Shown: piece after piece, positions 1 to 13,882 of the stretch
Position numbering within the stretch: position 1 is the first letter of the stretch
Layout: every line of letters starts with the position of its first letter
DNA from: Octopus sinensis
Lineage: Eukaryota
Reading direction: 5' to 3'
NCBI RefSeq assembly: GCF_006345805.1
Contig: NW_021825966.1
Location: 1 to 13,882, forward strand
Length of the DNA stretch: 13,882 nucleotides
Program-made: the position numbers and the translations under genes
Notes under the pieces: generated by a model
Databases searched by the model: none
Seen by the model: the letters and a program-made list of their open reading frames with translations, nothing else
What the model was told of the DNA's origin: nothing

Positions 1-244
1 TTGTACGTATGCACATGTGTGTGTGTCAAGTATAAATTTATCTGAGAGTTCTTCTGTCTCTGCTTTTCTATGCCTGTATGCAAATGAGTTTGGCTAAAAT
101 ATTGCTAAACTTGTCAGTCACGATGACCTGAGCGCGTGATTGCCGTGTTCGTTGAATCTGCTGCAGTCACGTGATTGACAACGGAATCGGTGGAGCATTG
201 GACAAAAGCGTTCTATTGAGTTAAACATTTTTTTTATATGCATA

Positions 245-646
245 TCTTTATATATAAAAGCGAAGTTGTGTGAGTGTCTGTCCCCTTCGATTTAGATTCC
301 TAACTACTCCCACATTTTGCGGTGCAGTTTTACCAAATTCGGGTATCTTATAGTCGTGATTCATATCGAGCCCTTCTGAGAATTAGCGCGCGTCCACGAT
401 GAGTCTACGATTTAAAAAAAAAATTACCATCATTTTTTCCATTTTAATGCATTTTTTCGCAATTATATAAAGGAAGTAACTCTCTAAAAATGTCTACGAT
501 GAGTCAACGATTTTAAAAAAAATTTACCATCATTTTTTTTTCCATTTTTAATGCATTTTTTTGCTATTTTTTTGCTATAACTCTCTAAAAATGCTTATAT
601 AGTTATTTCCCTTACAAACCCGAGCAACGCCGGGCGATACTGCTAG
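245..646 (+). mobile_element. Non-autonomous Helitron
   Basis: Starts A|TC (TCTTTATATATAAAAG at 245) and ends CTAG|T (643-646). A GC-rich hairpin CCCGAGCAACGCCGGG (619-634) lies 8 nt before the CTAG. There is no TSD and the element sits in an A|T site, which are canonical Helitron termini. Internal ~100-bp tandem duplication at ~392-594. Confidence 0.85.
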
Positions 647-699
647 TATGTATATATATCTAAATGCATGTCTTCGGTATGTCTTTAAACAGCATCCTA

Positions 700-1082
700 T
701 ATTAGGGGCCTGGTTTGGGTTTTCTAGCGTTTTGAGGAGTGTGGGGCCACTTCGTAGTCACTATTGTTCCTAAGTCTACTCTGACCCGGACATTTATCCC
801 TGCCAAGGTCATAGCTATGGATTAATAGAGGGGCTTCGGAACAGGGGTTCCAGGGTGTTGAAGTATGTGGAACCACTTCATAATTACTACTTTTCCTAGG
901 TCTACACTAACTTGGAGTGGTAGCTCCTGTCAGGGTCGTAGAAATGGGTTAATAGAAGGGCCCTAGAACAGGAGGTCAACGAGTTTGAAGGTTGTGGAAC
1001 CACCTCATAACTACTTGTGTTCTTAGGTCTAGTATGACTCGGAGTAGGTGCGCTTGTCTGGATCCCAGATATGGGTTAAATA
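700..1082. repeat. Degenerate tandem repeat, three units of ~126-127 bp
   Basis: The block TGTGG..CCACYTCRTA...CYTARGTCTA...GACYYGGA...ATGGRTTAA recurs with TGTGG at 740, 866 and 993. Confidence 0.75.
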
Positions 1083-1199
1083 CCAGGTAACCATCCAAGG
1101 CAGCTTGGTTACATGCTATTTAAGTCATGAATTACAACATGGATGTGAACCATTTCGGAAAATTAAGCTTAAAGGATAATGGCGAATTGAAAGGCTGAG

Positions 1200-1417
1200 T
1201 GAAGGAACAGACTACAAAGAGTCAACGGTCAGCTTCAAATAGGTCAGTTTGCGAACTACCATCTATAGTTGTGGTGACCGCTGGTATTTCAACAAGCGAA
1301 AGACCAATGGGCTTAAAACTCAATCCAAACGTTCATACCACATCGATTGAGCAGGACATTTGGCATAGAAGAGTCACATTGGACTGGGTAAATCGCTTGA
1401 TCGGATGAGGATGATGA
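1200..1417 (+). mobile_element. Possible eroded 3' end of an RTE-clade LINE
   Basis: The ORF tail ...SIEQDIWHRRVTLDWVNRLIG* resembles RTE C-termini (DRxxWRxxV) and is immediately followed by a TGAGGATGATGA short-repeat tail. The match is weak and degenerate. Confidence 0.3.
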
Positions 1418-1420
1418 CGG

Positions 1421-1421
<1 letters not shown>

Positions 1422-1472
<51 letters not shown>

Positions 1473-1652
1473 TATCATCATCATTATCACCATTATTATC
1501 ATCATTATTATCATCATTATTATCATCATTATCATCATTATTATCATCATTATTATCATCATTATTATCATCATTATTATCATCATTATTATCATCATTA
1601 TTATCATCATTATTATCATTATTATCATCATTATTATCATCATCATCATCAT
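1422..1652. repeat. (ATC)n/(ATT)n trinucleotide microsatellite
   Basis: Direct reading. It produces the poly-I and poly-M ORFs. Confidence 0.98.
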
Positions 1653-1848
1653 TTATTTTTTATCTCAGGTTTTGTTGTAACACCTGGAGTCTTACCTGCG
1701 TAGCGGGCTTACTACGTGCAGCCTACGGTACCATGTTATCCATTTTTTGCGATTATCTAATACTTTCTTGATTATTCTGGACGCACCAAAGAGGAAAACC
1801 TTTTGTATCACTTCTACCGGGCACTCTATTCCGATTTCCTTTATATAT
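1652..1848 (-). mobile_element. 3' fragment of an R4/Dong-clade non-LTR retrotransposon
   Basis: The minus strand from 1847 translates to YIKEIGIECPVEVIQKVFLFGASRIIKKVLDN, matching the R4/Dong C-terminal pattern (LGI...QKxxLLGTARIxRKVL). A ~100-nt 3' region ending GATAAAAAATAAA runs into (TGA/TAA)n. Confidence 0.7.
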
Positions 1849-1875
1849 GATGATGATGATGATGATGATGATGAT
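1848..1875. repeat. (TGA)n microsatellite
   Basis: Direct reading. Confidence 0.95.
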
Positions 1876-2013
1876 ATCCAGTTACTGACTTCTTAATGCT
1901 GCATTCTCTCAATAGTGAGGATACGAAACGCACCAATCAATGGCTAAGGCTGATCTAACTGATGATGGTCTATATGTGTCGAAACTGAGTGACCATAGCT
2001 CAGTAAGCTTTGC

Positions 2014-2141
2014 TTAACAGGAGCTGAAGTGTTCCTCTTGGTCGTAGCAGTTAAAGCGATGGGTATCTGACGTAATAAAGTAGGGTTCCCCAGGCACAAA
2101 GCCGCACCCCAGTACCGTGTGCTGGATCATTTGGTCCCGGA
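2014..2141 (-). CDS. Candidate terminal coding exon of an unidentified host gene
   Basis: Non-repetitive, relatively GC-rich island preceded on the minus strand by a good acceptor TGTTATTCTTTCTGTGCAG|. The phase-1 frame reads RDQMIQHTVLGCGFVPGEPYFITSDTHRFNCYDQEEHFSSC*. I do not recognise the protein. Confidence 0.3.
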
Positions 2142-2270
2142 CTGCACAGAAAGAATAACATTTCAAAACTTTGTCTATTCTGTTGGTTTTCGCAGTCTTC
2201 AAGATGATTTGCATTATATATGTATTCTATATGTAATGAATATGCATTATATATGTAATAATGAAAAGGT

Positions 2271-2515
2271 GGAGATGTATGGCTTAGTGGTTTGGAGTAT
2301 TACACTCATGTTCGTAAGATTGTAGGTTCGATTCGGTGACCGAGCGATGACGTGTGTCCTTGAGCAAAGCATTTTATTTCCCGTTACTTCACACAACTCA
2401 GATAGCAAAATGTGAATTCCTCCGACGGATCGACGTTACATCCAAGGGGGAGTATTTACTCCACAGAACCCAGTGAGGAAACTGACCTTATAAGCCTATG
2501 GCTCGGATAAGGAAA
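2271..2515 (+). mobile_element. Old tRNA-derived SINE
   Basis: A box TGGCTTAGTGG (2280-2290) and B box GGTTCGATTC, followed by a CORE-like TGTGTCCTTGAGCAAAGCA block. Heavily diverged. Confidence 0.7.
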
Positions 2516-2623
2516 TGACCTTTCTTTTGAATAATTAAATTATACTGTGTGACACGACTTTTGTCCTTGGGTAGCAACAGTTATTTCCTATTTGCTGACT
2601 CCTAGAAAGTATTAAAAACAGCT

Positions 2624-2741
2624 GATAGATAGATAGATAGACAGATAGATAGATATATAGACAGACAGACAGATAGACAGGCAAATAGATGGGTAAACAG
2701 AAATATATAGATAAACAGATATAGACAGATAGATAGATATT

Positions 2742-2801
<60 letters not shown>

Positions 2802-2823
2802 CAGACAGATAGGTAGGTAGATA
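2624..2823. repeat. (GATA)n/(GACA)n microsatellite, 3' flank of LINE copy A
   Basis: Direct reading. Confidence 0.97.
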
Positions 2824-3372
2824 AGTTTCTTTATTGGCCACACAGGCCTGCACACAGATGGGACAAGTTACAAGGTAGAGCTTTTCTTTTGGGGGATGAA
2901 AAAAACAAAAAACACAAGAAAAAAAAAGGGGTGGCGTAGGTTTTCGATCAAGAGGGATCGTAAAAGGGAAGAAAAGAAAAAAAAGAAAATAAAAATAAAA
3001 AGAATAAAAAGAAAAAAAAGAAAAGGAAAAAGAACACACAAAAGGAAAGAAATGAAAAAAGAAGAAAGAAGGGGGAAAAAAAAGGGGAAGAGGAAAAAAA
3101 GAACGATCAATAGGGATCGTGTATCGAGAGTGTTATGATATATGGTTGTAAAGGGGAAAGCAAGTAAGGTTATCCGTGGGAGAAAAGCCTACGAAAAAGA
3201 CCACGGTAACCTTGGTCAATATTGTTATATGTTACCACATTTGTGCAAGTGGGTAACCCTCTGTTTTCAAATTTCTGGGTTCATGGATTATGCTCAAGGT
3301 GGCTTCGTCATTCATACGTGCCATCCTTGCTACATTCACCCATCTTTTTTTAAAACATTCGCTAGACAAGAC
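2824..3372 (-). mobile_element. Tx1/L1-type LINE copy A, 5'-truncated (ORF2 end plus 3' UTR)
   Basis: The reverse complement aligns with ~11282-11738 and encodes [28 protein letters not shown]. It ends AATAAAGAAACT followed by (TATC)n. The UTR differs from copies B and C, indicating a separate subfamily or an older copy. Confidence 0.9.
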
Positions 3373-3459
3373 AGATAGATAGATATTTAGATAGATAGAT
3401 AGATAGATATTTAGATAGATAGATAGATTGACAGACATATAGATAGATAGATAGATGGG

Positions 3460-3535
<76 letters not shown>

Positions 3536-3610
3536 CAGACAAACAGATAATACATAGACAAACAGATAGACAAATATATAGACAGAAAGACAGACACAGA
3601 CAGACAGAGA
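3373..3610. repeat. (GATA)n/(GACA)n microsatellite, 5' flank of LINE copy A
   Basis: Direct reading. Confidence 0.97.
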
Positions 3611-3970
3611 CACTTAGAGTGTACAGGTATATGTACTTGTAGGCGTTGTTCATCTTTCTGTGATTTTATTCAAGATCTGCTCATAATACCGACGTTAGAA
3701 GGTGGCGATGGCGGAAAGGGTGTAGTAATGGAGGTGGAGGTGGTGTTGATAATGTGTTGGTGGCGGTGTACGTGTGTGGCGAATGAGGGGGGCAATGGTG
3801 TCGGCGAGGAATGAACAGAGATGTAAAGTAGAATGTAATAATATGACAGGTGAAATTTGGTGGAATCGTTGGCGTGAAGATTTTGATAAAAATCAACGGC
3901 AACAGATATTCGTAGCTTGTTGGAGCTGTCACTGATGGAAGTAAACCGTTGATAACAGTTTACGTACACA

Positions 3971-4013
<43 letters not shown>

Positions 4014-4018
<5 letters not shown>

Positions 4019-4325
4019 CCGTGATCACCGTGACCGACCAGGCTATCAGATGTTGCTACACATCGCTGGTCACAATGCGCTTCGCATTGTTTTAGCCTTC
4101 AAATGACGCCACCCCGCTGGCTAAGCGAGTAGGCCAACAGAAGAAAGAGTGAGAGAAATTTGTTTCGAAAGAGTACAGGAAGGATCGCCACCACCCCCTA
4201 CTGGAGCTTCGTGGAGCTTTAGGTGTTTTCGCTCAATAAACACACACAATGCCCGGTCTGGGAATCGAAACCGCGATCCTACAACCGCGAGTCCGCTGCC
4301 CTAACCACTGGACCATTGCGCCTCC
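4014..4325 (-). mobile_element. Full-length tRNA-derived SINE
   Basis: The minus strand starts GGAGGCGCAATGGTCCAGTGGTTAGG (A box) and contains GGTTTCGATTCCC (B box). It ends in a short repeated tail (CACGGTGAT)2 and lies between (TA)n and (CA/TA)n tracts. Confidence 0.85.
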
Positions 4326-4380
4326 ACACACACATATATATATATATATACAAACACACCATATATATATATATACACAT

Positions 4381-4422
<42 letters not shown>

Positions 4423-4713
4423 TATATATATACACACACACACACAAACGTACGTATGTACATATATGAGAGCGTTGTAGTTCGCATGAAGCTTGTAATA
4501 GCAAAACGCTAAAAAGAGAGCAAATAGAAAGCTTGCTAAAATATGGCAAGTTTAATAAAACCCTTATATATCAGGTGCAAACTCCCATCTTCAGGGGAAA
4601 ATTCCATAAGAAACGTACGATCTATCAACCCTCATAGCTGAAATATAAAAACTTTATTAAACTTAACGCTTTGTAACACGCTTTCTAGTTTTTTTCTCAT
4701 TTTCACCTTCTTC

Positions 4714-4757
<44 letters not shown>

Positions 4758-4795
4758 TGTAGCTGGATAGATACACACACACACACACGAATCTG

Positions 4796-4880
4796 TTTTG
4801 TCTTTTACGTAAGTCATTAGACTGCGGCCATGCTGGGACATCACCTTGAAGGATTTTAGTCAAACGAAATCATACCAGTC
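4796..4880 (-). mobile_element. 3' fragment of the SINE family seen at 11847-12274
   Basis: AGTCATTAGACTGCGGCCATGCTGG matches AGTCATTTGACTGCGGCCATGCTGG at ~11877-11901. Confidence 0.75.
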
Positions 4881-4962
4881 CCCGTTTAAAATTTATTATT
4901 ATCATTATTATTATTAGTATTGTTGTTGTTGCTTTTATTCGTGTTGTTGCTGTTGTCGTTAA

Positions 4963-5140
4963 GGCGGTGAGCTTGCAGAATCGTTAGAACGCTAAACGAA
5001 ATGCTTAGCGATATTCCACCCGTCGCTACGTTCTGAGTTCAAATTCCGCGAGGTCGACTTTGCCTTTCGTCCTTTCGGGGTCAACAAATTCAGCACCAGT
5101 TGTATACTTGGGTCGATGTAATCGACTCACCCCTCAAAAG
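4963..5140 (+). mobile_element. tRNA-derived SINE with uninterrupted head, same family as 8450-9251
   Basis: GGCGGTGAGCTTGCAGAATCGTTAG...GAAATGCTTAGCGATATTCC...GAGTTCAAATTCC (B box)...GCCTTTCGTCCTTTCGGGGTC. It shows the empty insertion site TTAGC|GATATT. Confidence 0.88.
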
Positions 5141-5149
5141 AAAACGACT

Positions 5150-5313
5150 CCCCCCCCCTCTGTCTTTCCTTCTCTGGATCTTCCTTCTCCTATGTTTCCG
5201 ACGAAGAGCTCCGCTCGAAACGTGAAACACTCCTTCTTTCCTGAGCGTCTAATAATACTATATTGTTCCACGTCCTCGCGTTGTTGTGTTTTTTTGTACT
5301 TTCTTGTTTGGAT

Positions 5314-5317
<4 letters not shown>
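5150..5317 (+). mobile_element. Probable Penelope-like element terminus with a hammerhead-like motif (5193-5229)
   Basis: TGTTT-CCGACGA-A-GAGC-TCC-GCTC-GAAACGT-G-AAACA folds as a type I minimal hammerhead with two core deviations. The pyrimidine-rich body ends at a (TA)n tract. Confidence 0.5.
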
Positions 5318-5350
<33 letters not shown>

Positions 5351-5352
<2 letters not shown>

Positions 5353-7570
5353 TGCTGGCCGAAATCTGCCTTTCAGCTTCTGACCAGCGTCGTGTTAACA
5401 TCGTTGTGTTTTCCGTCCGCCGCTATAGGCATCGCCGATAAGGCTCCTTTCCTCGCGCCAGAGAAAAATTTTGTTTGCTTTGTATCAGTCGTAAGACACT
5501 TGTTGTTGTTTTCACCGTTAATGCTTCTGTATTTCATGTTTCTGTATTCCATTATTTTTTTGTTTTTTTATATTCGTCCCTTTTGCTGTCCTGGTGTCCG
5601 TATGCATTCGATCCTTCTTCCAGGAAATCTACGCTCCCAGCTTAGTTTTTCTAATGCTCGTTGCTTAGTTTTTCTTGGAGGGCTGGCCGTGATCTAGTAA
5701 TCTCAAGATTAATCAGCCGAAATTACTACGATGATCCGGTTCTTGACTGAAGACTGAGGGTTCCGAATGTCCTGTCCGTGTTTATTGTATCGTCTTCTAA
5801 GAGTTATACGTTCTTGTCCATGTTGTATTTTTCTACATACCTTAACATATATTCCAGGCGCCACGTACCCTCTTAACATTAATGTGAGCACATATTCTTA
5901 ATAACTGGTACGACTCTTTGTTTGTCTCTCTCTCTCTCTCACTTTTACTTGATCTTCCCCTTCTCTCTCTACTCATCCTCTTTTTCTCTTCTCTTTCCTT
6001 GATTCTTTGGTCTAATCTTCCACTACCCTCCTATTTCTTTGTCTCGCTCTGCACTCACAGGTCAATCTTCGACACCCATCCCTTCTCCTCTCTGATTCCT
6101 TCTTTCTCTCTCTTCTCTCTCTTTGTTGCGTTTGTCCCTCCTCTCTCTCTCTCCTCTCTCTCTCTCCTCTCTCTCTCTCTTCCGTTGCTTCTCTTTCTTT
6201 TCTTTTCTCTCTTTTCTGTCACGTGACTGCTGGCCGAAATCTGCCTTTCAGCTTCTGACCAGCGTCGTGTTAACATCGTTATTTTTCGTCCGCCGCTATA
6301 GGCATCGCCGATAAGGCTCCTTTCCTCGCGCCAGAGAAAAAATTTGTTTGCTTGTTATCAGTCGTAAGACACTTGTTGTTGTTTTCACCGTTAATGCTTC
6401 TGTATTTCATGTTTCTGTATTCCATTATTTTTTTGTTTTTTTATATTCGTCCCTTTTGCTGTCCTGGTGTCCGTATGCATTCGATCCTTCTTCCAGGAAA
6501 TCTACGCTCCCAGCTTAGTTTTTCTAATGCTCGTTGCTTAGTTTTTCTTGGAGGGCTGGCCGTGATCTAGTAATCTCAAGATTAATCAGCCGAAATTACT
6601 ACGATGATCCGGTTCTTGACTGAAGACTGAGGGTTTCGAATGTCCTGTCCGTGTTTATTGTATCGTCTTCTAAGAGTTACGTTCTTGTCCATGTATTTTT
6701 CTACATACCTTAACATATATTCCAGGCGCCACGTACCCTCTTAACATTAATGTGAGCACATATTCTTAATAACTGGTACGACTCTTTGTTTGTCTCTCTC
6801 TCTCTCTCACTTTTACTTGATCTATCCCCTTCTCTCTCTACTCATCCTCTTTTTCTCTTTCTTTCCTCTGATTCTTTGGTCTAATCTTCCACTACCCTCC
6901 TATTTCTTTGTCTCGCTCTGCACTCACAGGTCAATCTTCGACACCCATCCCTTCTCCTCTCTGATTCCTTCTTTCTCTCTCTTCTCTCTCTTTGTTGCGT
7001 TTGTCCCTCCTCTCTCTCTCTCCTCTCTCTCTCTCTTCCGTTGCTTCTCTTTCTTTCTTTCTCTCTTCTCTGTCACGTGACTGCTGGCCGAAATCTGCCT
7101 TTCAGCTTCTGACCAGCGTCGTGTTAACATCGTTGTTTTTCGTCCGCCGCTATAGGCATCGCCGATAAGGCTCCTTTCCTCGCGCCAGAGAAAAAATTTT
7201 GTTTGCTTGTTATCAGTCGTAAGACACTTGTTGTTTTCACCGTTAATGCTTCTGTATTTCATGTTTCTGTATTCCATTATTTTTTTGTTTTTTTATATTC
7301 GTCCCTTTTGCTGTCCTGGTGTCCGTATGCATTCGATCCTTCTTCCAGGAAATCTACGCTCCCAGCTTAGTTTTTCTAATGCTCGTTGCTTAGTTTTTCT
7401 TGGAGGGCTGGCCGTGATCTAGTAATCTCAAGATTAATCAGCCGAAATTACTACGATGATCCGGTTCTTGACTGAAGACTGAGGGTTTCGAATGTCCTGT
7501 CCGTGTTTATTGTATCGTCTTCTAAGAGTTATACGTTCTTGTCCATGTTGTATTTTTCTACATACCTTAA
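5351..7570 (+). repeat. Head-to-tail tandem array of a complex ~865-bp unit (~2.6 copies), flanked by (TA)n; possibly Penelope-like terminal repeats
   Basis: ACTGCTGGCCGAAATCTG recurs at 5351, 6226 and 7080 (periods 875 and 854). Copies differ mainly by small indels in homopolymer and (CT)n runs. Internal junctions read CCTTAA-CATATAT-TCCAGG and the array ends CCTTAA-(TA)n. Confidence 0.95.
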
Positions 7571-7592
7571 TATATATATATATATAAGATCT

Positions 7593-7733
7593 GCTTCTTT
7601 CAGTTTCTGTCTAAATCTACTCACAACGTTTTGGTGGATTAGAGTAGGAAACAACTGCCCAAGGTACCACGCAGTGGGAGCGAACACGGGACATCTTGTT
7701 AGGAAGCAAACTCCATACTACACTGCCACGCCT
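7593..7733 (-). mobile_element. Diverged 5' half of the SINE family seen at 11847-12274
   Basis: GCTTCTTTCAGTTTC...CTCACAA...CCACGCAGTGGGA matches ~12125-12272. Confidence 0.8.
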
Positions 7734-7738
7734 ACGGC

Positions 7739-7774
<36 letters not shown>

Positions 7775-7964
7775 TGCATACATTCGTACACACACACACA
7801 TATATATATTATGTATATATATATAAGATGTGAGTACAAAATATGATAAATAAAAATAGACATTAAACCATTTGTAGGCAATTAATACAAAGTGACCCCT
7901 AGAGAATGATTACTGAAGGGGGCTAAATACGCTTTTCATATTAAAAGAATTATGGCTCCCTTAC

Positions 7965-8033
7965 GTCTCATTTGCAGAGATTTCGGGGTCTTGACAGCTC
8001 CGTAGGATATACGTAAAGACGAACTGTACCACA
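7965..8033 (-). CDS. Candidate 69-nt internal exon
   Basis: Minus strand TCAG|TGTGG...ATGAGAC|GTAAGG. The phase 1-1 frame is open (WYSSSLRISYGAVKTPKSLQMR) and compatible with the candidate exon at 2014-2141. The acceptor is weak. Confidence 0.15.
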
Positions 8034-8254
8034 CTGACATAAGCATATACTCTTACACACACACACACATATATATGCTTGGAGGTTTGCATAATTGTGT
8101 GGGCACACGTGCGCGTTTGTGGGCGTGCGCAGGCGTGTGAACATTGTGCATACATGTATGTAGATAGGTAGGTAGATAATGAAAAGCACGTTTCGGCCAC
8201 ACTGCAAATTCACTGGCAATCTGTAAATTTAATAACAGTACTTTCTAGTGTTGA

Positions 8255-8445
8255 CACAATGCCTGAATTTTTTGTGGGGGAGGGGATGGTCGATTACATC
8301 AATACCAGTGCTCAAATGGTGCTTACTTAATCGACCCCCAGAGGATGGAAGGCAAAAGTTGACCTTGACGGAATTTGAACTCAGATCTCAGAACGGAAGG
8401 ACGAACGAAATGCTAAGTGTGTTAACGATTCTGCTCACGCTCCTT
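8255..8445 (-). mobile_element. Diverged tRNA-derived SINE, same family as 4963-5140
   Basis: GGAATTTGAACTCAGA (B box reverse complement), AAGTTGACC, TAATCGACCCC and TAACGATTCTGC all match the family. Confidence 0.8.
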
Positions 8446-8448
8446 CGC

Positions 8449-8449
<1 letters not shown>

Positions 8450-8486
<37 letters not shown>

Positions 8487-9251
8487 TAATAATTTCAAAT
8501 TTTGCCACAAGTGCAGCAATTTTGGGGTATGGGATGTCGCTTACATCGACACCAGTATTCAACAGGTACTCATTTTATCGACTCTGGAAGGAGAAAGGTA
8601 AAGTCGACCTCGTCGGAATTTGAACTCAGAACGTAGCGGCAGACGAAATACCTATTTCTTTATTACCCACAAGGGGTTAAACACAGAGGGGACAAACAAG
8701 GACAGACACACGGATTAAGCCGATTACATCGACCCCAGTGCGTAACTGGTACTTATTTAATCGACCCCGAAAGGATGAAAGGCAAAGTTGACCTCGGCGG
8801 AATTTGAACTCAGAACGTAGTGGCAGACGAAATACCTATTTCTTTATTACCCACAAGGGGCTAAACACAGAGAGGACAAACAAGGACATACAAACGGATT
8901 AAGCCGATTACATCGACCTCAGTGCGTAACTGGTACTTATTTAATCGACCCCGAAAGGATGAAAGGCAAAGTTGACCTCGGCGGAATTTGAACTCAGAAC
9001 GTAGCGGCAGACGAAATACCTATTTCTTTACTACCCACAAGGGGCTAAACACAGAGGGGACAAACAAGGACAGACAAACGGATTAAGTCGATTATATCGA
9101 CCCCAGTGTGTAACTGGTACTTATTTAATCGACCCCGAAAGGATGAAAGGCAAAGTCAACCTCGGCGGAATTTGAACTCAGAACGTAGCGGCAGACGAAA
9201 TAACGCTAATCATTTCGTCAAACGCGCTAACGATTCTGCCTCCACGCCGCC
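8450..9251 (-). mobile_element. Host SINE (head 9205-9251, body and own tail 8493-8652, (TTA)n end) interrupted by three 184-bp units
   Basis: The head GGCGGCGTGGAGGCAGAATCGTTAGC...TTAGC and the distal body ...CCCCAAAATTGCTGCACTTGTGGCAAAATTTGAAA(TTA)n together make one diverged SINE. Confidence 0.85.
8653..9204 (-). repeat. Three near-identical 184-bp units (8653-8836, 8837-9020, 9021-9204), each a SINE body plus a LINE-like 3' tail
   Basis: Exact 184-bp period (AAGTYRACC at 8601, 8785, 8969, 9153). Each unit ends ...GTGGGTARTAAAGAAATA and is followed by GGTATTTCGTCTGCC. Confidence 0.95.
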
Positions 9252-9267
9252 ATAAAGTCGCCCGTGT

Positions 9268-9400
9268 AATGATGATTTCAAGTTTTTGCCAGCAGTTGTT
9301 GAGAGGAGGGGCAAGTCGATTCATTGATTCCAGTACGTGACTGTTATTCATTTCATTCACTTAGAGGTTGCAACGCCAAACCGACCACAGAGGAATGTGA
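9268..9400 (-). mobile_element. Highly eroded SINE fragment, same family as 4963-5140
   Basis: AAGTCGATTCATTGATTCCAGT...CCGACC...GGAATGTGAA parallels AAGTCGATTATATCGACCCCAGT...TCGACC...GGAATTTGAA. Confidence 0.55.
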
Positions 9401-9459
9401 AAAGGCCATCAAAATAATAACTACCTTATGAGATCTTAAAGAATTGAGGATTTACGTAT

Positions 9460-9530
9460 ACCTGTATACAGAAATATCATCTACTATACTCTCAAACACT
9501 GCCAGAAATAAATTGCGCATGAATATCTGT

Positions 9531-9535
<5 letters not shown>
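9460..9535 (+). repeat. 76-bp direct repeat, left copy
   Basis: 74/76 identical to 12732-12807 by manual alignment. Confidence 0.95.

Positions 9536-9600
<65 letters not shown>
9531..9600. repeat. (TATC)n microsatellite, 5' flank of LINE copy B
   Basis: Direct reading; perfect repeat. Confidence 0.98.
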
Positions 9601-9601
<1 letters not shown>

Positions 9602-10244
9602 CCTTCAAACGGGAAGGAAGAGCTATTTTCATCATCCTTGTGGCTATGGCGAAAGAATATATCTGGTGGACGCGTCTGAAAGGATTGGAGACAAACACTT
9701 TCCTCTCTGGTCAATCTCTCATCAACTTCTTCAAGTACCACTTGAAAAGGAAAGTGAGAGTAGAGAGGCAAGTTTTGTCTAGCGAATGTTTTAAAAAATG
9801 ATGGGTGAATGTAGCAAGAATGGCACGTATGAATGACGAAGCCACCTTGAGCATAGTCCTATGAACCCAGAAATCGAAAACAGAGAGTTGCTTTTTTATT
9901 TGCAAAAAAAAAAAAAAAAAAAAAAGAATATAAAATGTGACTTCATTGACCGAGGTTACCGTGGTCTTTTCCGTAGGCTTTTCTTTCCACGGGTAAACCT
10001 CACCTGTCCTCCCTTTAACACTTCATATTGACATTTCTGTGATAACGATCCCTATTGATCAATTTTTTTTCCTCCCCCCCTTTTTTTTTTTTTTTTTAAC
10101 CCCCCTTTTTTTGTCTCTTTCTCTCCTTTTACGATCCCTTTGATCAAACTCCCCCTTCCTTTTTTTTTTTTAAAACCTTCAAAGAAAAGCTCTACCTTGT
10201 AATTGTTCTATCTGTGTGCAGCCCTGTGTGGCTATAAAGAAACA
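9601..10244 (+). mobile_element. Tx1/L1-type LINE copy B, 5'-truncated
   Basis: Nearly identical to 11112-11738. It carries an in-frame TGA at 9799-9801 where copy A has AGA, and ends TATAAAGAAACA|(TATC)n. Confidence 0.92.
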
Positions 10245-10275
<31 letters not shown>

Positions 10276-10350
10276 TTATCCATCCGTCTCCGTCCGTCCA
10301 TCCTTCCATCCATCCATCCATCATCCATCTTCTATCTATCAACTTTTCTT

Positions 10351-10395
<45 letters not shown>

Positions 10396-10498
10396 TTATC
10401 CATCCGTCCGTCCGTCCGTCCATCCATCCATCCATCCATCCATCCATCTATCTATCTATCAACTTTTCTTTCTATCTATCTATCTATCTATCTATCTA
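10245..10498. repeat. (TATC)n/(CATC)n compound microsatellite with an internal ~125-bp duplication
   Basis: TATTTATCCATCCGTC...AACTTTTCTTTCTATC occurs twice. Confidence 0.92.
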
Positions 10499-11738
10499 GT
10501 GGTTGATGATGCGCAGACACGCGCTGAGACTGCGACATCTCTGGCTCTATGTAGACGACGGTGAACAGGTGTGGTCGCCGTTTGTGAGGCACGCTTTCCC
10601 GCAGCTCGTCTCCATGACCGAACTGCAGTCGTGGATCAAAAAGAGGCCGAGGAAGGGCGAATGGCACCGCGAGTGTCGCGTTGCTCTCAAGCAACTCTGC
10701 CGTCCTGGGTCGACCTTAAGTGACTTCAACACAACCAAAGCATTCTATAGGGGTTTAGTGGAGGGGAGGTACGACGACGAGCTCGGGTCGAACCTGGACG
10801 TCGACGAGGAGTACCTGACCCGCCTGTTCAGGACGACTTTCGGGCCAGGATCCATGGACAACTTCCAGAGATCCCTGGCCTGGCAGTGCTACCGAGAAGC
10901 GCTACCCGTTCGGGATAAGCTCTACAGACACGGCTCGAGAAACACGGGGCCGACCTGCCCGAGATGCGGTCAGAGCGACGAAACCGTTCTGCACGCACTC
11001 GTTCAGTGTCCAACAATTTCCGACCTGTGGGCTTGTGTCGAACAACTGCTGTCACGTGTGGGACGAGTCGGTTTATCAGCTGAGTGTATCGTCAATATTG
11101 TCACGCCTCCTTCCTTCAAACGGGAAGGAAGAGCTATTTTCATCATCCTTGTGGCTATGGCGAAAGAATGTATCTGGTGGACGCGTCTGAAAGGATTGGA
11201 GACAACACTTTCCTCTCTGGTCAATCTCTCATCAACTTCTTCAAGTACCACTTGAAAAGGAAAGTGAGAGTAGAGAGGCAAGTTTTGTCTAGCGAATGTT
11301 TTAAAAAAGATGGGTGAATGTAGCAAGAATGGCACGTATGAATGACGAAGCCACCTTGAGCATAGTCCTATGAACCCAGAATCGAAAACAGAGAGTTGCT
11401 TATTTGCAAAAAAAAAAAAAAAAAAAAAGAAATATAAAATGTGACTTCATTGACCGAGGTTACCGTGGTCTTTTCCGTAGGCTTTTCTTTCCACGGGTAA
11501 ACCTCACCTGTCCTCCCCTTTACACTTCATATTGACATTTCTGTGATAACGATCCCTATTGATCAATTTTTTTTTTTTTCCTCCCCCCCTTTTTTTGTCC
11601 TCTTTCTCTCCTTTTACGATCCCTTTTGATCGAAACTCCCCCTTCCCCTTTTTTTCTTTTTTTTCTAACCCTTCAAAAGAAAGCTCTACCTTGTAATTTG
11701 TTCTATCTGTTGCAGCCCTTGTGGCTAATAAAGAAACA
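10499..11738 (+). mobile_element. Tx1/L1-type LINE copy C, 5'-truncated (~1.24 kb)
   Basis: ORF2 C-terminal region plus 3' UTR. AATAAA at 11727-11732, no poly(A) tail, and (TATC)n on both sides. Confidence 0.92.
10500..11373 (+). pseudogene. C-terminal fragment of LINE ORF2 (post-RT region plus zf-RVT-type zinc knuckle), frameshifted twice
   Basis: Motifs SLAWQCYREALPV, C-x2-C-x8-H-x4-C (CPRCGQSDETVLHALVQC, 10956-11009) and AKECIWWTR are typical of L1/Tx1 ORF2 ends. Restoring one A at ~11204 (present in copy B) and one at 11303-11308 (present in copy A) gives a continuous frame to TGA at 11371-11373. Confidence 0.88.
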
Positions 11739-11803
<65 letters not shown>

Positions 11804-11846
11804 GTGTGTGTGTGTGTTGTGTGTGTGTGTGTGTGTGTGTGTGTGT
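11739..11846. repeat. (TATC)n followed by (TG)n
   Basis: Direct reading. Confidence 0.97.
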
Positions 11847-12067
11847 CTATTCTCTTTACTCTCTTTTACTTGTTTTAGTCATTTGACTGCGGCCATGCTG
11901 GAGCACCACCTTTAGTCGAGCACATCGACCACAGTACTTATTCTATCGGTCCCTTTTGCCGAACCGCTAAGTTACGGGAAAGTAAACACTCCAGCATCGG
12001 TTTTCAAGCGATGTCGGGGAGACAAACACAGACAGACAGACAGACAAACACACACACACACAGACAC

Positions 12068-12110
<43 letters not shown>

Positions 12111-12273
12111 CATACATACGACGGGCTTCTTTCAGTTTCCGTCTACCAAATCCACTCACAAGGCGTTGGTCAGCCCGAGGCTATAGAAGAAGAGACTCGC
12201 CGAATGTGCCACGCAGTGGGACTGAACCCGGACCATGTGGTTGGTAAGAAAGCTACTTACCACACAGCCACTC

Positions 12274-12274
<1 letters not shown>
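11847..12274 (-). mobile_element. Full-length tRNA-derived SINE with an internal (TG)n tract
   Basis: Minus strand AGAGTGGCTGTGTGGTAAG (A box), GGGTTCAGTCCC (B box), central GCCTTGTGAGTGGATTTGGTAGACGGAAACTGAAAGAAGCCCGTCG, and tail CAGCATGGCCGCAGTCAAATGACT...AAAAGAG. Partial copies lie at 4796 and 7593. Confidence 0.88.
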
Positions 12275-12276
<2 letters not shown>

Positions 12277-12313
<37 letters not shown>

Positions 12314-12384
12314 TATCTATATATATATATATACACACACATATATACACATATATATATACATATATATATATATACATATAC

Positions 12385-12444
<60 letters not shown>
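12277..12444. repeat. (TA)n/(CA)n microsatellite
   Basis: Direct reading. Confidence 0.97.
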
Positions 12445-12445
<1 letters not shown>

Positions 12446-12506
12446 TTTTATTCTCGAATTTGATGACATATAGTGGTACAAAAGCCGACTCAAGAAATCT
12501 CAACTC

Positions 12507-12575
12507 AGACTTTTTATTGATGTACCTGAAGAGACCCAGGGCGGGTCGAAACATGTGTTGTACCGAATGAAGTCT
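12507..12575 (+). ncRNA. Type I hammerhead ribozyme motif inside a (TA)n-bounded fragment (~12445-12712), probably Penelope-like
   Basis: GTAC-CTGAAGA-GACCC-AGGGC-GGGTC-GAAA-CATGT-GTT-GTAC has an intact core, a perfect 5-bp stem II, a short stem III and a 4-bp proximal stem I that can extend through TTATT/AATGA and AGACT/AGTCT. Confidence 0.7.
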
Positions 12576-12731
12576 ATTACACATTCCATATATTTTACCA
12601 CAACCTGCACAACCTAGTTTCTGCAGTAAGTCTACGAATAACAACAGGTAATCGAAACTGTGCAGGTGCTTTACTCATCATCCTTCTAGACATATTCTGC
12701 AATTTCTCCATTATATATATATATATATATA

Positions 12732-12807
12732 ACCTGTATACAGAAATATCATCTACTATACTCTCAAATACTGACAGAAATAAATTGCGCATGAATATCT
12801 GTTCTAT
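12732..12807 (+). repeat. 76-bp direct repeat, right copy
   Basis: Matches 9460-9535 with 2 substitutions. Confidence 0.95.
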
Positions 12808-13200
12808 GTAGCATTTCAATATGAGCTACATATAGACATCCACAAATTCTGTAAGTTTAAGACCTTCCATCGGATCTCCATGAATCGAACTTTCTTCAAT
12901 GCAGTTAATCTTACACCCTCATTTGTATCTACCACTTTTGATGTTTGGGAATTCTCTGATGTTTTTTCGGCTGACGAGTACGAGCCATCTGTATTTACTA
13001 CTGCATTTTTTGTAGTTTTAAAGATGTCCTCGTACGAAACAATTGTACCGAGATTTTAATCCATTCTTGTTGCTTTTTTCCTATTTGTAATCACCCCACT
13101 TGTCGTGTGGTTAACACACCATATATGTTTCCGGTGCATCCTAGTTAAGGACCATATTCATGTGAATTCATTAGAATTCACTTGAATCTTAATTACTTAA

Positions 13201-13241
<41 letters not shown>

Positions 13242-13246
<5 letters not shown>

Positions 13247-13443
13247 ATCCTTCAACTATCGCAGGTGTTACGTCCCAAAACTCTCTGCGATTAGTGAAAA
13301 TCTGCGAAGCAACCATATTTTTTTTAACTAGTTATATAATTTGTATATACTTATTTTTATATTCAAAACAACACCACGGAGGAATCGACGTAAGCTTAAT
13401 AATAAACCGCGATAGGTGACCGCGATATGGCAAGGGATTACTG
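13242..13443. mobile_element. MITE of Tc1/mariner (pogo/Tigger-like) type
   Basis: Imperfect ~24-bp TIRs: left TAGTAATCCTTCAACTATCGCAG, right (reverse complement) CAGTAATCCCTTGCCATATCGCGG. TA dinucleotide on both sides. Confidence 0.7.
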
Positions 13444-13448
13444 TAAAT

Positions 13449-13484
<36 letters not shown>

Positions 13485-13491
13485 TATATAT

Positions 13492-13597
13492 ATTTATTTT
13501 AAGAATGAGCTTCTACAGACTAGAACTGTTTCATCTGATGATTTCATTTGAATGAAAACAGTTCTAGTCCTGTAGAAGCTCCTTCTATAAAATAAAT
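13492..13597. repeat. Long inverted repeat (~43-bp arms, 17-nt spacer)
   Basis: ATTTATTTTAAGAATGAGCTTCTACAGACTAGAACTGTTTCAT pairs with ATGAAAACAGTTCTAGTCCTGTAGAAGCTCCTTCTATAAAATAAAT, with a few single-base bulges. Confidence 0.88.
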
Positions 13598-13674
13598 TAT
13601 TTACTCTGCTATGTATTGAGTACCTTATTTACTGTGGTTAACCCCAACTCAACCCGAACCTAAATATATATAAT

Positions 13675-13707
<33 letters not shown>

Positions 13708-13882
13708 TATATATATATATATACCCCTTTAATTTACTCTTCCTTTAAGTAGGGATTAACAAAAAGCCTCAAAATAACTTAGGGACACAGGGCACATTAT
13801 ATAATCTGTTTAAAACGCAGTGTCCCTGGGGTAAGGGGATAATTGTAGGTTTTATTTTAAATACTCTGCACTTAAATGATAC

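Follow-up and report, generated by a model that had tools for sequence, protein, structure and literature searches.

The window analysed here, a stretch of 13,882 nucleotides from Octopus sinensis (NCBI RefSeq assembly GCF_006345805.1, contig NW_021825966.1, positions 1 to 13,882 of the forward strand), holds an array in which three 184-bp units stand between the head and the body of an older short interspersed element (SINE). We are fairly confident of the following explanation: a full-length SINE has repeatedly been inserted between bases 47 and 48 (47|48) of its own older copies, likely through the endonuclease of a Tx1-type long interspersed element (LINE) and joining by homology. The 184-bp unit lies within a full-length SINE, insertions into genomic copies of this SINE fall at 47|48 and carry a target duplication, a LINE sits at the same base, newer units lie towards the head, and a second head is almost never kept.

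The array in the window

The letters of the window confirm three 184-bp units between a SINE head and a host body, all on the minus strand. An earlier reading of the window made without database searches (hereafter the sequence-only reading) had described the stacked units, their identical junctions and an empty site in the copy at 4963, and all of these are borne out. The features are listed below, with box motifs judged against the general consensus and SINE positions numbered along a column-majority yardstick built from fetched copies.

9205-9251, minus strand: SINE head (positions 1-47) of the old host copy, scoring as the old family and not the young one
9231-9241, minus strand: single A-box-like motif, inside the host head
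9021-9204, minus strand: Unit 1, SINE positions 48-231; head and Unit 1 together form a full-length SINE and the target site
8837-9020, minus strand: Unit 2, SINE positions 48-231
8653-8836, minus strand: Unit 3, SINE positions 48-231
9021-9068, 8837-8884 and 8653-8700, minus strand: Tx1-like 3' tails of the units, by matches to LINE-tail columns
9168, 8984, 8800 and 8616, minus strand: B-box-like motifs
8604-8652, minus strand: start of the host body (positions 48-96), young in appearance by a log-odds scan
8494-8603, minus strand: remaining part of the old host copy, whose tail differs and is not of Tx1 type
8449-8493, minus strand: (TTA)n end of the host
4963-5128, plus strand: unfilled old relative whose empty site has diverged (GATATT)

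The junction reads AAAGAAATA|GGTATTTCGTCTG in all three cases. The units were said to keep a B box, to lack an A box and to have no T4 terminator, and this agrees with the single A-box-like motif (in the head), the four B-box-like motifs and the absence of any run of four T from the sense strand of the array. An Rfam scan of 8400-9300 gave no tRNA match and no ribozyme in the array.

Pairwise comparison of the three units gives 10, 10 and 6 differences in 184 positions. Units 2 and 3 have variants in common whose frequencies are 6.9%, 2.8% and 33%, and Units 1 and 2 have no rare variant in common. Because three variants are common to Units 2 and 3, one of them at 2.8%, Unit 3 is probably a local duplicate of Unit 2 or was inserted together with it. 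Unit 1 is likely the most recent insertion, an order taken from the genome-wide polarity described below, and the whole array is probably a record of two insertions and one duplication. Over its first ~50 bp (8652-8604), the host body resembles young sequence in the scan and not the host family; the 3' crossover therefore lies inside the body, and this short stretch was possibly copied from read-through RNA or converted. When contigs from four other runs were compared with the window, contigs of the flanks were present and none spanned the array, although in such a comparison SINE copies swamp the signal of filled and empty sites. Two decayed SINEs of the old family lie directly before and after the host on the same strand (9270-9400 and 8280-8445, minus).

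A full-length SINE and its recurrent junction

The mobile element is a full-length 231-bp SINE, of which the 184-bp unit represents bases 48-231. Like tRNA-type SINEs (SINE2), it is short, non-coding, dispersed and present in high copy number, with A- and B-box motifs at positions 11-21 and 74-84 and with target-site duplications, commonly of 13-20 bp, round most single copies. Counting exact patterns over the 2.72-Gb assembly, we found 93,741 occurrences of a 24-mer of the tail, and at the first 30 of these loci the tail closes a 231-bp SINE that has a head of its own. At 28,080 places the tail runs on into GGTATTTC, the element's own sequence from position 48 onward, and the reversed control pattern of this junction has no match in the genome. 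Thus, the junction in the window is not a product of chance. Tabulating what follows the tail had been suggested by the sequence-only reading: the element's own body does so after 28,080 of the 93,741 tails, and many of the others end single insertions with duplications. GGTA follows 47,143 of the exact tails, leaving half without it. Some 19,000 tails that do not continue as GGTATTTC precede GGTA, against about 15 million GGTA words, a rough comparison that rests on a SINE-enriched 798-kb sample.

Arrays occur at many loci with unrelated flanks, in the same orientation and exact to the base. Repeated insertion of a family into itself, as first read from the window, is therefore upheld at many independent loci. 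Among 82 sampled arrays, from loci picked largely for the 48 junction, 58 have one junction, 16 have two, four have three and four have six to nine, for 133 in total. The last piece carries the young tail in 36 arrays and an older or other tail in 46. Internal junctions in sampled arrays, again chosen largely for the 48 junction, resume at 48-51 or 45 in 131 of 145 cases and at 15-17 in 11.

Several further arrangements of this SINE were encountered. A minor second register at position 15 (GC|AGAA) is used by the C219 subfamily, and apparently by B2-tailed elements too (loci L024, L080, L081, L082, L117, L134, L213 and L258). Head-only tandem arrays repeat positions 1 to ~63 plus AA or AAA, in steps of 65-67 bp and up to about nine in a row (L104-L111, L122-L126 and G000:C3430:1637-2208). 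Some single copies (L018, L080 and L090) carry a short extra head piece, approximately positions 1-18, at the 5' end. Targets outside SINEs differ by subfamily, with GG at 10 of 13 ACA, AG at 19 of 40 C219 and TA at 9 of 14 GC elements (p=3e-8, small cells), and these preferences could reflect the flank of the source copy or different partner LINEs.

Genomic copies of the SINE as target

The pattern of a head, a short duplication and a second head has 70 matches in the genome. We read 30 double-head loci, which represent 21 distinct ones: 12 consist of a host head, a duplication, a complete young SINE and then the host body, four are tandem heads and five are of other kinds. Several of the 12 retain host-specific letters on both sides (for example at L113). 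Such loci are the product of ordinary target-primed insertion at 47|48. Insertions with a second head are rare beside the 28,080 junctions, and no second head at the 47|48 site was present among the sampled arrays.

One family of hosts is B2 (L174-L197), whose members are ~212 bp long with a tail ending in AGAAAAG and with their own target duplications, often starting AATAT. The B2 host motif stands after the young tail 2,205 times and after a head 685 times. Empty single copies account for 14 of 30 head-side loci, and at 25 of 27 distinct loci on the tail side the motif belongs to the final body. This host subfamily is largely filled, with an occupancy of roughly 75-85% once unequal decay of the probes is taken into account.

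Most B2 bodies therefore lie behind a tail, and this could also be expected if a few founder arrays had been transcribed whole by RNA polymerase III and retrotransposed as compound SINEs, with true self-insertion a rare event. The missing T4 terminator in the array and the mere 70 second-head matches are in keeping with such an origin. However, first units before B2 bodies are of at least four types, and compound elements should be equally diverged in both parts. With CpG and subfamily sites excluded, divergence in 30 arrays is 3.2% for the unit that precedes a B2 body and 5.6% for the host body (p=0.0003). The host part is thus ~1.7 times as diverged and is close to free B2 copies (6.5%), and we consider the compound origin quite unlikely. 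This contrast between units and hosts, a comparison that the sequence-only reading had proposed, extends to the array heads, which are 6.7% diverged.

A LINE at the same base

One array begins with the end of a LINE, and a search with that end yielded the family. The 30 best-scoring copies are 98-100% alike, and SINE position 48 follows in 29 of them. The exact LINE tail occurs 137 times in the genome, directly before SGTATTTC in 117 cases. Taken instead in genome order, 30 of 30 copies precede a SINE body at 48, including two that are only 87-89% identical. All 20 fetched copies are full length (~5.35 kb) and start right behind SINE positions 1-63. Base 48 is the same upstream and downstream of the LINE in 20 of 20, with both base states found among near-identical LINEs, and the heads beside five copies with zero-length end branches in the tree differ at 5-7 of 47 bases. 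From this agreement at base 48 and the differing heads, it follows that the host is the source of the flanking head and of the duplication, at a minimum of its start. The target duplication is ~13-16 bp, its exact length being uncertain because base 61 is mismatched in 7 of 20 copies.

The two open reading frames (ORFs) of this LINE span 520 and 1134 codons from stop to stop. ORF1 has a zinc knuckle, and ORF2 has endonuclease, reverse transcriptase (RT) and zf-RVT domains (PF00098, PF03372, PF00078 and PF13966 for the two frames). The best named homologue is a 'Transposon TX1' protein (31%) and the best PDB match is L1 ORF2. Across the last 38 aligned columns, the SINE tail matches the SINE-targeting LINE in 30-31 and the tails of LINEs that target TATC repeats in 27-30. 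Judged by sequence, the 3' end of the SINE is a homologue of the LINE tail, with 27-31 of 38 columns matching in three Tx1-type families of the same genome. The link to Tx1 elements suspected from the window alone is supported by a Tx1-type LINE at the same base and by a Tx1-like tail on the SINE.

Contigs of four runs that we guess to be RNA, although labelled as another organism, cover much of the LINE, and three bridge a SINE head to the LINE; given their unproven RNA status we do not count them as expression. The window itself contains fragments (9520-11740, plus; 2620-3370, minus) of a Tx1-type LINE that is very abundant, with 25,276 candidates in a protein search, and that ends in (TATC)n in most copies (loci L031-L060 and L150). 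We weighed this TATC-targeting family as the partner of the SINE and set it aside: its copies end in TATC repeats, and its ORF2 (a 1149-codon frame at L150) is 55% identical to that of the SINE-targeting LINE. It may nevertheless be the partner of other SINE subfamilies. More distant Tx1-type families (L152:7198-8600, L063:6880-8350 and L120:6-1440) have 44-58% protein identity to L150, and some of the distant families end at (TAA)n runs beside old SINEs.

Arrays grow at the head

New copies enter between the head and the first unit, and arrays therefore grow at their head side. This polarity is seen in the younger first units and in the position of the LINEs. In young dimers the first unit is 2.9% diverged and the last 3.9% (n=30, p=0.009), and by rank the means are 3.0% for first, 3.3% for middle and 3.9% for last units. 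The older C219 type is the first unit in 0 of 30 arrays and the last in 18 of 30. Full-length LINEs occupy the head junction in 20 of 20 cases, leaving unused the 21 internal junctions that lie behind 12 of these 20 LINEs.

The sequence-only reading had proposed a headless 184-bp derivative that moves alone, borrows the A box of its host and rebuilds the target downstream. Such an element would account for the constant junction and for the lack of a head on every array unit after the first. However, what moves is a SINE of the full 231 bp that has an A box and duplications of its own, and half of the exact tails lack the GGTA. Single copies are full length, and our sample holds no solitary copies that start exactly at 48 with their own duplications. 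Among 650 annotated chains, no free piece starting at 47-51 has unrelated DNA upstream, and the four candidates lie behind a damaged tail or a LINE junction. Moreover, growth is headward, so that the newest element adjoins the head and the target is not recreated downstream. We thus consider independent mobility of the unit very unlikely.

Local duplication within arrays

No rare variant is common to 82 of 124 adjacent pairs, one is common to 19, and two or more to 23; for random pairs, the background is 5.4% with one and 0.2% with two or more. In arrays of at least five pieces, 14 of 46 adjacent pairs have two or more rare variants in common, and the arrays at L072 and L145 are homogenised. 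Local duplicates account for roughly one neighbouring unit in five to one in three. The independence of insertions claimed from the window accordingly stands for most units, and fails for some that were duplicated locally or arrived together, probably including two of the three in the window.

These same pairs, the two homogenised loci and the three variants common to Units 2 and 3 are what one would expect if arrays were built mainly by local unequal crossing-over or slippage, as has been proposed for SINE-derived satellites. Yet crossing-over cannot place a Tx1 tail inside hosts with another tail, as is seen in the 46 of 82 arrays that end in an old or other tail. It also leaves unexplained why thousands of loci have one register, why a LINE sits at that base and why 82 pairs have no rare variant in common. 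The long, homogenised arrays of SINE-derived satellites are not typical here, since only four of 82 arrays have at least six junctions. Because arrays of mixed family refute it as the main route, we regard unequal crossing-over as a highly improbable source of the arrays overall, and as a process that remains in a secondary role.

The seamless joint

The first bodies of arrays are 2.9% diverged and the heads in front of them 6.7%, and the heads are thus older overall. SINE junctions carry G48 in 28,080 cases and C48 in 301, yet C48 is present in 24 of 51 young single copies. Heads of the G43/C48 type are rarer on arrays (12 of 79) than on single copies (20 of 51, p=0.003), and bodies of TA type accompany G43/C48 heads in 6 of 12 arrays and 2 of 20 single copies (p=0.03). 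Although the numbers are small, this pattern fits partial immunity together with overwriting by read-through RNA. The G43/C48 head variant (L311-L340) keeps the predicted hairpin closed, is rare at SINE junctions and common as a LINE target, and is a possible escape variant.

The 47|48 cut lies at the edge of the predicted hairpin loop, and the flanking bases 43 and 48 vary together. This raises the possibility that arrays are made in one event by template switching, if RT were to halt at base 48 in the loop and then jump to the 3' end of another RNA or roll round a circle. Heads that often match the first unit and not the host, and arrays with a young-tail end that are often bounded by one target duplication, would be at home in such a scheme. 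Against it stands the age gradient, with last units measurably older than first ones. Neighbouring units, moreover, mostly belong to different subfamilies and have no rare variants in common, and genomic hosts are entered at 47|48 with duplications by both SINE and LINE. Template switching is therefore quite unlikely as the main route. We also considered a retrozyme-like circle, which is without support: the Rfam scan revealed no ribozyme, and the fold of the whole SINE is no better than that of shuffled sequences (z -0.38).

A model for self-insertion

In the explanation we favour, insertion of the full-length SINE at 47|48 of its own copies, a LINE lineage that targets the same base would supply the proteins for target-primed reverse transcription there. 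The SINE likely lands at one base because it borrows the enzyme of a LINE that inserts almost only at that site. Its RNA would match the host on both sides of the nick. Once tail and body have been copied, the end of the cDNA could anneal to the duplicated bases of the host or further up its head, with the point of crossover varying. Joining to the host head by homology would mean that each round adds only bases 48-231, and head and new unit would together restore both a SINE and a target site in intact form. Read-through RNA with GGTA at its end may help to choose, and sometimes overwrite, the 3' junction. Local duplication would afterwards lengthen some arrays.

A number of observations weigh against this explanation or complicate it. 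The duplication is not, as a rule, simply retained: only 5 of 25 B2 arrays have the host letters 61T/63T in their first unit, and 5 of 25 heads belong to a type that 17 free B2 copies lack. The likeness of the tails does not single out the SINE-targeting LINE over the TATC-targeting families. That LINE has C48 hosts in 18 of 30 copies, unlike the SINE junctions with their strong excess of G48. With 137 exact tails it is also scarce, and most of its copies are younger than the units, though two of 30 are 87-89% identical. That this lineage moves the SINE is likely, a view drawn from the shared target. Several partner LINEs may act, given that half of the tails lack GGTA and that subfamilies differ in their targets. 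The 23 of 124 adjacent pairs with at least two common rare variants far exceed the 0.2% background. Finally, our fetched loci come mainly from the start of one contig (C1) and from exact-match probes, and so favour young copies.

A broader scenario can be offered tentatively, as possible if on balance doubtful. A SINE lineage may have taken the tail of a LINE that parasitised that very SINE, and so have become a scarless, self-writing element whose RNA is homologous to both sides of the cut and which rebuilds promoter and target in each round. Most copies of some host subfamilies would then have been filled, and the G43/C48 escape variant, which the SINE rarely fills and into which the LINE still inserts, would have been selected.

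Relation to known systems

The closest parallel is the crocodilian SINEU-3 and the Tx1-Mar LINE group, whose common repeat target is taken as evidence of partnership and whose tandem insertions are successive (PMC4494074). Both systems pair a SINE with Tx1 LINEs at a common repeat target. However, crocodilian insertions enter a Mariner element, which is unrelated to the SINE, and a target duplication lies between the tandem copies, whereas here the target is the head of the SINE's own family and the joint is seamless and in register. This suggests that the octopus system is a variation on Tx1-driven targeting, distinguished by its own-head target and seamless joint.

Dewa targets tRNA arrays. 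Other LINEs of this kind insert into Tx1D (Xenopus Tx1L), U2 genes (Keno) or microsatellites (Kibi and Koshi), as summarised in PMC4494074. All resemble the octopus LINE in being Tx1-type elements with an apurinic/apyrimidinic endonuclease (APE), with a base-exact multicopy target and a target duplication. Here, in contrast, the target is a dispersed, mobile SINE family whose young branch has a related tail. R2 differs in its restriction-like endonuclease, its rDNA target and its autonomy. It is co-transcribed with its 28S target, and target-homologous RNA flanks are said to strengthen specific integration (Eickbush 2000 and Fujimoto 2004, as cited in PMC4494074). Such homologous flanks provide a model for the seamless joint proposed here.

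The SINE-derived satellites of squamates are described as tandem SINE parts that become homogeneous and are ascribed mainly to unequal recombination (PMC10702118), and the tandem SINEs of the clam S. broughtonii as a headed first copy followed by head-truncated copies, again ascribed mainly to recombination (PMC11481361). Unlike these, most octopus arrays consist of few units of mixed type; they show an age gradient, and a site-specific LINE matches their target. The octopus SINEs OK, OR1 and OR2 presumably come from the same genus, and we take it as possible that they belong to the same superfamily as the SINE studied here. They are named as tRNA-derived elements in PMC4758252, and the available sections of that paper and of PMC8967140, another on mollusc repeats, mention no such targeting; arrays of OK, OR1 or OR2 likewise go unmentioned in the former. 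In the full-text literature we found no description of a self-targeting SINE system, a search whose scope lay outside Repbase, Dfam, subscription papers and supplements, any of which may hold one.

We believe that these arrays merit attention for several reasons. They point to retrotransposition, and not recombination, as a way in which scattered SINEs can give rise to tandem repeats, and nature has replicated the process tens of thousands of times. They also suggest that a SINE serves a site-specific LINE as target and passenger alike, a closed loop that confines many insertions to existing repeats. Young LINE copies have open ORFs, which makes it possible to test directly how an APE-type element chooses its target and how homology guides the joining of its 5' end. 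The 5' joining step is poorly understood and is relevant to RNA-templated gene insertion. On a practical level, repeat libraries may carry the 184-bp unit, or a head plus units, as false families.

Elsewhere in the window, positions 5350-7560 are occupied by an unrelated repeat of ~870 bp in three tandem copies, with start-to-start distances of 873 and 852 and with parts that are 97-99% alike.
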